Of a stretch of DNA of 35,268 nucleotides, positions 18,536 to 18,955 are shown piece by piece. Position numbers and translations under genes: made by a program. This stretch comes from a virus. The DNA lies in the UHGV virus genome UHGV-0140091. One strand, 5' to 3'. Each line of letters opens with the position of its first letter. The first letter of the stretch is position 1. The notes below the pieces were generated by a model, which was given only the letters and a program-made list of their open reading frames with translations, had not been told where the DNA came from and searched no databases.

Positions 18536-18737
18536 AGATAACCACACTCAAAGAGTCAAGAAAAATTTTAAAAATATTTTTGGCAAAACTGTAATGAAAC
18601 GGGCGCACACGACTACCACAAAACAGAACACAAATCAAGAATTATTTTTCAATCCGCTACAAATTTTTCTCTTGACTTTTAGGGAGAGGGGGAGTAAGAG
18701 GGGGAGAGGGGTTGGTCTGGCTCTCTATAAAAACCTA

Positions 18738-18882
18738 CCTGCACAATTCTAAAATGATTTTTCTTGCCCGACCTGAGCGGGGTCTGCACGTTTTGAAAAT
18801 GATTTTTCTATCCGGCGATGAGATTTTTTGGGATATCTGTACAGACCCCTACAGATACCTGCACAAATTGAAAATGAAAAAG
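18738..18882. repeat. three direct repeats in an ORF-free leader region
   Basis: CCTGCACAATTCTAAAATGATTTTTCT (18738-18764), CTGCACGTTTTGAAAATGATTTTTCT (18784-18809), CCTGCACAAATTGAAAATGAAAAAGG (18858-18882), preceded by a purine-rich tract at 18682-18720. Confidence 0.5.
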
Positions 18883-18921
18883 GCCGCCTTACCTTAAATT
18901 TTTCAATGGGTTAGGCGGCCT
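18877..18921 (-). terminator. rho-independent terminator after the macrodomain gene
   Basis: Minus-strand hairpin AGGCCGCCTAA...TAAGGCGGCCT followed by TTTTT. Confidence 0.5.
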
Positions 18922-18955
18922 TCTTAGATGATTTGTAGATACTATGAAGTGCTAA

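Follow-up and report, generated by a model that had tools for sequence, protein, structure and literature searches.

A conserved array of asymmetric direct repeats in a gene-free gap of Felix-O1-like phages, with candidate protein-binding sites at both ends of one operon

The window analyzed here, i.e., the whole 35,268-nucleotide stretch of the virus genome UHGV-0140091, belongs to a Felixounavirus, and the 1.8 kb around the repeat region are 98% identical to Escherichia phage EcoM2 and match 294 Felix-O1-like records of the subfamily Ounavirinae. The repeats lie in a 488-bp gene-free gap (18468-18955) between two minus-strand genes, a macro-domain "phosphatase" gene at 18956-19735 (Pfam Macro, E 2e-6), which is the constant syntenic neighbor of the array in all four genera, and the gene at 18084-18467, the first of a small-gene array according to the ORF list and the gene layout. 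Read along the minus strand, the phosphatase stop codon is followed by a hairpin (18925-18877), the tract UUUUUCAUUUUC, three repeat units, the C-rich complement of a purine tract, an A/T-rich conserved block, and the promoter P(-), past which there are a 5' hairpin and a ribosome-binding cassette that are common to several other small genes of the array.

The small-gene array occupies 13.0-18.5 kb, between the terminal-repeat end of the genome and the repeat locus, and has one promoter per gene. Its intergenic cassettes (65-90 bp, at 13236-18083) fall into two families and give nearly every gene a promoter of its own, the first family being composed of a -10 element, the hairpin GGGGAGGGAATGACCTTCCCC, and the segments ACTAAATAAAG and AGGAGATTCTAAAATG, and the second of TTTACA-17-TAAAGT around the hairpin GGGGCTTA...TAAGCCCC. 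Nine tRNA genes are clustered at 329-1681 on the minus strand and, in the relatives, a Ro60-like RNA-binding protein (EcoM2_00088) is encoded just upstream of the tRNA region.

The sequence-only reading of this region had described three direct repeats of ~26 bp, lying 45-75 bp apart. The copies and their spacing are borne out by the repeat finder and the sequence (starts at 18739, 18784, and 18859, spaced by 45 and 75 bp), although the conserved unit is ~24 bp long and usually occurs four times per relative. The degenerate pattern originally proposed matches the three copies with 0, 0, and 1 mismatch, respectively, against an expectation of 0.35 matches, and none of 100 shuffles reaches three. 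Written on the plus strand, unit 1 (18739-18762), the most widely conserved, is CTGCAC AATTCTA AAATGA TTTTT, unit 2 (18784-18807) is CTGCAC GTTTTGA AAATGA TTTTT, and unit 3 (18859-18882), the last one here and the counterpart of unit 4 in most relatives, is CTGCAC AAATTGA AAATGA AAAAG, in which the A-run is the complement of the terminator U-tract. The conserved unit can be summarized as (C/A)TGCAC-N7-AAATGA plus five A/T positions and, on the transcribed strand, reads W5-TCATTT-N7-GTGCAG, being asymmetric and not palindromic. In the 88-kb EcoM2 genome, the exact motif has three copies in the array, with a further copy of one mismatch behind rIIB, and further near-matches are no commoner than expected by chance. 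The stretch between units 2 and 3 (18823-18868) of the window carries the palindromic TCTGTACAGA and a CTACAGA repeat, where the Felix-O1-type relatives have TTCTCTACAGA twice, and GGGGTCTGCAC/GTACAGACCCC make up an 11-nt inverted repeat that is specific to the lineage of the window.

The hairpin at 18877-18925 is, by its sequence features, the minus-strand intrinsic terminator of the phosphatase operon, at the 3' end of the phosphatase gene. Its fold reaches -25.5 kcal/mol on the minus strand of the window, and the orthologous hairpin of Felix O1 reaches -25.8 kcal/mol on the minus strand versus -11.4 on the plus strand, where the fold is weaker because three G.U pairs become C.A mismatches. 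The U-tract is found on the minus strand only, and the Moogle- and Kolesnikvirus versions are alike in behavior. This terminator was missed by the consensus scan because its loop is longer than 8 nt.

Two sigma-70 promoters are predicted in the gap. The strong P(-) (18559-18531, minus strand; TTGACT-17-TAATAT), which has an A/T UP-like element at 18560-18582, would drive 18084-18467 and the small-gene array, while the candidate P(+) (18672-18700, plus strand; TTGACT-17-TAAGAG), with an A/T-rich UP-like block behind it, is an inverted partial copy of P(-) that has a weak -10 in this allele and was not flagged by the consensus scan. The -35 and UP portion of P(+) is the most conserved block outside the repeats (18634-18680, ATCAAGAATTATTTTTCAATCCGCTACAAATTTTTCTCTTGACTTTT), with nearly every column conserved at >=95%, and the -35 (TTGACT, 18672-18677) together with its upstream sequence at ~100%, among 24 Felixouna-, Moogle-, and Suspvirus sequences. 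The alternative allele has a better -10 (TTGACT-17-TAGYCT, with TG at -15/-14), and the Kolesnikvirus counterpart, TTGACG-18-TATACT, is strong. The purine-rich tract noticed upstream of the repeats does exist (18682-18711, plus strand, GGGAGAGGGGGAGTAAGAGGGGGAGAGGGG), but it can hardly be part of the device, given that, in the alignment of the same 24 sequences, the segment between P(+) and unit 1 has two alleles, with 13 sequences being G-rich and 11 carrying the unrelated "CAGATGTGGTAG..." in its place. P(+) and its leader (18672-18757) resemble an inverted, diverged small-gene cassette, such as that at 14724-14814, in the G-rich hairpin and in CTATAAAAA, which is similar to CTAAATAAA, while ATTCTAAAATG is identical to the translation-start region of the small-gene cassettes, and the CTGCAC of unit 1 occupies the Shine-Dalgarno position of the cassette layout.

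A lack of conservation of the repeats had been named beforehand as a possible refutation of a control function, and the repeats prove to be conserved. The locus was found in 289 of the 294 related records, with the non-coding segment matching at one place per record across four Ounavirinae genera, in the same architecture downstream of the phosphatase gene. Four-unit arrays are usual, with spacings of 45, 39, and 73 bp in both Felixounavirus and Suspvirus, 45, 41, and 75 bp in Mooglevirus (the first base of the unit being C in these three genera), and 39, 37, and 37 bp in Kolesnikvirus, where the first base is A (ATGCAC). Three-unit arrays are found in the lineage of the window, which includes EcoM2, Si3, and three metagenome contigs. 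Across 72 distinct units from the four genera, neither TGCAC nor AAAT shows variation beyond a single G-to-A change; the seven intervening bases are variable, and the five bases that follow AAATGA (positions 18-22) are only A or T, switching between A5 and T5. The unit-to-unit spacing (37-45 and 73-77 bp) has no constant helical phase. In the Erwinia and Hafnia Kolesnikviruses, the blastn-level match is confined to 35 nt (unit 1 plus its flank) at 91% identity. A metagenome scan by the phosphatase protein for more distant relatives returned close relatives only, and, by tblastn, this protein is a member of a broad macro-domain family.

The segment 18572-18802 is 94% identical to Felix O1, while the adjoining phosphatase of this lineage shares only ~41% protein identity with most Felixounavirus phosphatases, just 13 records exceeding 90%. 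This divergence indicates, at the level of sequence comparison, an allele swap with its joint inside the repeat array, and the mosaic joint of the lineage falls just 3' of the unit 2 core. Judged from these alignments, the array is the best-conserved non-coding signal in the Felix-O1 group and is better kept than the genes that surround it.

Record KT184313 (KhF1) has the whole locus at each of its ends, with 89.7% identity, hinting at a tandem duplication or a mixed assembly. Record MT446388 (TH10) breaks within the locus and has a 74-bp overlap. A genome terminus was suspected here because two records break inside the locus, and was ruled out, since the terminal repeat maps ~6 kb away. The 608-bp terminal repeat of UAB_Phi87, which was determined experimentally (PMC4837284, Fig. 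S1), maps to 11941-12524 of the window at 84.5% identity, within the ORF-free stretch 11503-12965. This stretch is dense in short TGTTAAGA/CTTGTTAG-type repeats, and both of the gene blocks that flank it are transcribed towards it.

A relaxed search also recovered a solitary copy of the motif at 23055-23078 (CTGCAC AAAATAC AAATAA AAAAA), outside the interval covered by the sequence-only reading. This copy lies directly after the rIIB terminator (23098-23075), with hairpin-TTTTTTTATTTGTATTTTGTGCAG as its minus-strand reading, and shares bases with the -35/spacer of a sigma-70 promoter (TTGTAT at 23069-23064, a spacer of 16, and TATAAT at 23047-23042) with a perfect -10 and a weak -35, which serves the SLT-like gene 22471-23010. 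The site is kept as TTATTT-N7-GTGCAG, with a variable N7, in the Felixouna- and Moogleviruses, i.e., in the block pattern of the array, with the -35 of the Mooglevirus version reading TTGAAA, and it was not seen in the Kolesnikvirus DNA available. The 88-kb EcoM2 genome holds four occurrences of the core ATTT-N7-GTGCA, versus 1.1 expected, all on one strand, namely the three array units and the solitary site.

The two loci bracket one operon of ~4.2 kb, which comprises the SLT-like gene, the polynucleotide kinase, the spanins, and the macro-domain phosphatase, and, on the transcribed strand, both are situated between a terminator and the next transcription start, with the minus-strand RNA predicted to be mostly free of the motif. 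The last array unit and the solitary copy each consist of a terminator T-tract and a downstream GTGCAG, and these modules align over ~30 nt. The left half of the solitary copy is also a plain terminator T-tract, which reads AAATAA and not AAATGA. The -10 element beside the solitary site has no equivalent at the array units, so the solitary and array contexts may differ in function.

A number of familiar classes of element do not account for the motif. A general phage promoter motif of the middle or late class, or a terminator motif, is set aside by its occurrence at only two loci in 88 kb, and a sigma-54 promoter by inspection, as the GG/GC doublets and their spacing are not satisfied. None of the IHF, Fur, Chi, and type I restriction sites fits, when their consensus sequences are compared by eye. 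No host counterpart of the array was matched in 5,426 E. coli genomes, while 72,556 plasmids gave chance matches to the terminator only, and a pattern scan of bacterial genomes for the array gave only unrelated coding repeats in MAGs. No earlier description of the array was found in the searchable literature, within which the element thus appears to be undescribed; the genome papers on Felix O1, wV8, and UAB_Phi87 (PMC4837284 for the last) list other repeats, promoters, and terminators, and not the array, and nothing was found in the literature on the transcription starts or the origin of the Felix-O1-like phages.

The comparisons above make the repeats look like cis-acting DNA sites rather than a gene or a folded RNA. 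It is scarcely credible that the plus-strand ORFs at 18498-18752 and 18712-18897 (or the frame from 18753) are genes for small, internally repeated proteins, even given that one frame is open across the in-phase units (45, 39, and 75 being multiples of 3), that each unit holds an AUG in an A-rich context, and that such ORFs have been annotated by some depositors. The absence of a convincing start, which the sequence-only reading had remarked on, is upheld by the relatives, in which the reading frames and start codons differ between genera and no Shine-Dalgarno sequence precedes them. There is no coding signature either, with the variable sites distributed 7/8/9 over the codon positions, i.e., without a third-position bias, radical replacements, a premature stop codon in one relative, a frame broken by the Mooglevirus (41 bp) and Kolesnikvirus (37 bp) spacings, and synonymous positions of CTG, CAC, and AAA that never vary in the units. 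A structured form of the small RNA that was offered as another option at the outset fails as well, as no conserved fold was obtained on either strand (RNAalifold -4.3 kcal/mol on the plus strand and -7.9 on the minus strand, with a covariation term near 0), the best Rfam match scores 18.9 bits versus a gathering score of 50, and the one hairpin is the minus-strand terminator; a tRNA or tmRNA search of the locus returned nothing. It is quite unlikely, too, that an unstructured P(+) transcript with four linear motifs (UGCAC...GAAAAUGA) soaks up an RNA-binding protein or a ribonuclease, for example by imitating a type III antitoxin of the ToxI kind. The conserved plus-strand -35/UP block upstream, the strong promoter found there in the Kolesnikviruses, and the orientation of all the units along the P(+) transcript are in keeping with such an RNA. 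The ToxI unit has 36 nt, and the Kolesnikvirus units are near-tandem, with a close period of 37-39 nt; AAAU and GAAAU are ToxN cleavage motifs, and AAAU is invariant in every unit, with GAAAU in some. The layout of a ToxI locus, in which tandem near-identical repeats precede a terminator and a same-strand toxin gene, is nevertheless absent, as no plus-strand gene follows, and neither Rfam, ToxI included, nor the E. coli, plasmid, and bacterial-genome searches offer a similar array. On the plus strand, the flanking hairpin has C.A mismatches and no U-tract, and P(+) has a weak -10 in the allele of the window. The A5/T5 flips are hard to square with RNA recognition, the solitary copy has no plus-strand promoter, and an accessory anti-defense decoy would be expected to be patchy, yet the locus is near-universal in the related records. 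Highly improbable, finally, is the notion that a "terminator tail plus promoter skeleton" was duplicated and that the units are its decayed copies, with no present function. The shared T-tract/GTGCAG make-up of the last unit and the solitary copy and the cassette likeness of the P(+) leader would fit this origin, but relics would decay, while TGCAC and AAAT have stayed invariant in the 72 units as the spacers and flanking genes diverged or were replaced.

Other explanations accept a cis-acting element and assign it a different role. A replication origin is unlikely. The units would be iterons, and P(+), in some alleles through its G-rich RNA, would open or prime the adjacent A/T-rich DNA for a T7-like primase-helicase and Pol A replisome, with the solitary copy as an operator-like outlier, as in iteron plasmids. 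The T7 and T4 origins are promoter-primed, and iteron replicons often carry an extra related site at a promoter. The array is a single locus with 3-4 equally oriented sites of ~19 bp, its conserved non-coding region is the largest besides that of the terminal repeat, back-to-back promoters and A/T-rich tracts adjoin it, the T7-like replisome has no annotated dedicated initiator, and the near-universal retention of the array despite replaceable flanking genes is what an essential cis element would show. Pfam, on the other hand, detects no Rep- or initiator-like domain in the 25 proteins of this part of the window, the genes that neighbor the array differ between genera, the replication genes are ~25 kb off, the G-rich tract is allelic, and the unit spacing is longer and less regular than that of classical iterons, while the GC skew tracks the direction of transcription only, with no inflection at the array, and is uninformative as a test of an origin. 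It is distinctly improbable that the array is a boundary of first-entering DNA like that of T5, at which entry would pause or the DNA would be anchored while the terminal small genes are expressed first. The injection-stop region of T5 has conserved untranslated repeats at 7.9% of the genome, with DnaA boxes, and the array is 6.3 kb (~7% of the genome) inboard of the physical end, from which the small-gene array separates it. The Kolesnikvirus units, with CTATGCACA or TTATGCACG, agree with the DnaA box TTWTNCACA at 7 of the 8 specified positions, i.e., with one mismatch, as against 5 of 8 for the Felixounavirus units. The comparison draws on position and on DnaA-box-like units in one genus; DnaA would account for neither the AAATGA block nor the invariant G, at whose position the box has N, and the solitary copy at 23055 does not fit. 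In the broader form of an undescribed, essential cis element of the Ounavirinae, whether a promoter-primed iteron origin or a T5-like boundary ~7% from the genome end, the proposition is doubtful.

The preferred reading, to which we assign a probability of about 40%, is that a conserved DNA-binding protein recognizes the repeats as asymmetric sites, which mark both ends of one operon. The "operator or enhancer-like control region" that had been proposed for this stretch is consistent with its non-coding character and its position at the head of the small-gene array, together with a terminator and a strong P(-), and its operator version gains indirect support from the solitary copy at a promoter. 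The several same-orientation copies are conserved block by block, regardless of reading frame, as is typical of the operator and iteron class of sites of ~15-25 bp. Protein recognition is suggested because the units alternate invariant, variable, and again invariant blocks, with A5/T5 flips beyond AAATGA, because the invariance extends to would-be synonymous positions and the units lack a coding signature, and because neither an RNA fold nor an Rfam family was recovered. It is also suggested by the locus-specific occurrence of the motif in 88 kb, by the solitary copy, which repeats the block pattern while overlapping a promoter -35/spacer, by the mostly untranscribed position of the motif on the main strand, and by a non-coding core that is far better conserved than its flanks.

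Under this protein-site reading, each unit would be a bipartite recognition site, with two invariant blocks about one helical turn (~11 bp) apart and an A/T-rich variable spacer, to which one conserved, sequence-specific protein would bind; the binding, its effect, and the identity of the protein are all inferred. At the solitary site, the bound protein might set the initiation at the operon promoter, either by occlusion or by class-II/MotA-like activation. At the array, three to four sites lie directly behind the operon terminator and in the path of the antisense P(+), and a multi-protein complex could form a boundary there, as a roadblock or an insulator, or else act as a regulator sink. Such a boundary would keep the SLT-to-phosphatase operon apart from the small-gene array, which has its own promoters, and would block antisense read-through of P(+) transcripts into the operon.

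The binder might be a 99-aa HTH_3 (Cro/C1-type) phage protein (EcoM2_00151, at 85057-85356 of EcoM2), the only annotated transcription regulator in the genome, or else a conserved host protein. The HTH_3 protein is 95-100% conserved in the Felixounaviruses and 70-78% in the Moogle- and Suspviruses, and no homolog was detected in the Erwinia phages (Kolesnikviruses), a distribution that parallels the CTGCAC form of the unit and the solitary site and may serve as a lead to a candidate binder, which is different from evidence of binding. HTH_3 proteins of the Cro/C1 type usually bind palindromes as dimers. This candidate is disfavored because the Kolesnikviruses keep the array without a detectable homolog, and because the unit is non-palindromic. 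The protein-site reading itself is weakened by the lack of a constant helical phase between units, by the left half of the solitary copy, which doubles as a terminator T-tract and departs from AAATGA, by the conserved plus-strand promoter that faces the array, which would suit a role as RNA, and by the near-universal retention, which an origin or another essential cis element would also show.

The Felix O1 group has classic standing in phage diagnostics and is widely drawn on for therapy and biocontrol candidates, and the 2010 genome paper described the temporal regulation of Felix O1 as not understood. A motif present at only two places in the genome provides a handle, both as a probe for its binding protein and as a target for deletion, and it is a landmark to avoid or to exploit in the engineering of Felix-O1-like phages. 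Should the array turn out to be an origin or to control DNA entry, a basic gap would be closed for the whole subfamily.

The array shares features with several known systems. Like ToxI and the phage pseudo-ToxI arrays, it is short and lies downstream of a promoter, its 37-45-nt units each bearing an AAAU-type motif, but it has variable spacers and no toxin gene, Rfam match, host counterpart, or plus-strand terminator. The middle promoters of T4, which combine a MotA box centered at -30 with a sigma-70 -10, resemble the arrangement at 23055-23078, where the box covers part of the -35/spacer of a promoter whose -10 is perfect and whose -35 is poor. Only one such promoter is found in 88 kb here, versus dozens in T4, however, the array units have no -10, and no MotA or AsiA homolog is known in the Felix-O1-like phages.

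The marbox of MarA, SoxS, and Rob has the consensus AYnGCACnnWnnRYYAAAYn. Similar to the units of the array, it is asymmetric and bipartite and spans ~20 bp; an invariant GCAC is followed by an A/T-rich spacer, which has W at its center, and, ~11 bp away, by an A-rich element, in a geometry that corresponds to a monomer with two helix-turn-helix units. The second element of the array is AAATGA, however, and not YAAA/CWA, being, depending on the register, one base closer or mismatched at its first base, and the A of marbox position 1 is absent. A marbox identity is rejected on this basis, as the first element fits and the second element or the spacing does not.

The injection-stop (iss) region of T5 differs from the array in sequence and in repeat architecture, the array lies outside the terminal repeat, and the Felix-O1-like phages are not known to transfer their DNA in two steps, but both consist of conserved untranslated repeats ~7-8% from the genome end, inboard of small self-promoted genes, and both are better conserved than the neighboring ORFs. 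The iterons of F ori2/RepE, P1 oriR, and the lambda ori, finally, are spaced by ~22 bp, versus 37-77 bp in the array, which comes without an identifiable initiator gene or skew signal. The likeness to iterons lies in the 3-4 direct, asymmetric, non-coding sites of ~19 bp near A/T-rich DNA and promoters, in the single cluster per genome accompanied by a related single site at a promoter, and possibly in the unit itself, which resembles the F iteron (…ACAAATTG…).
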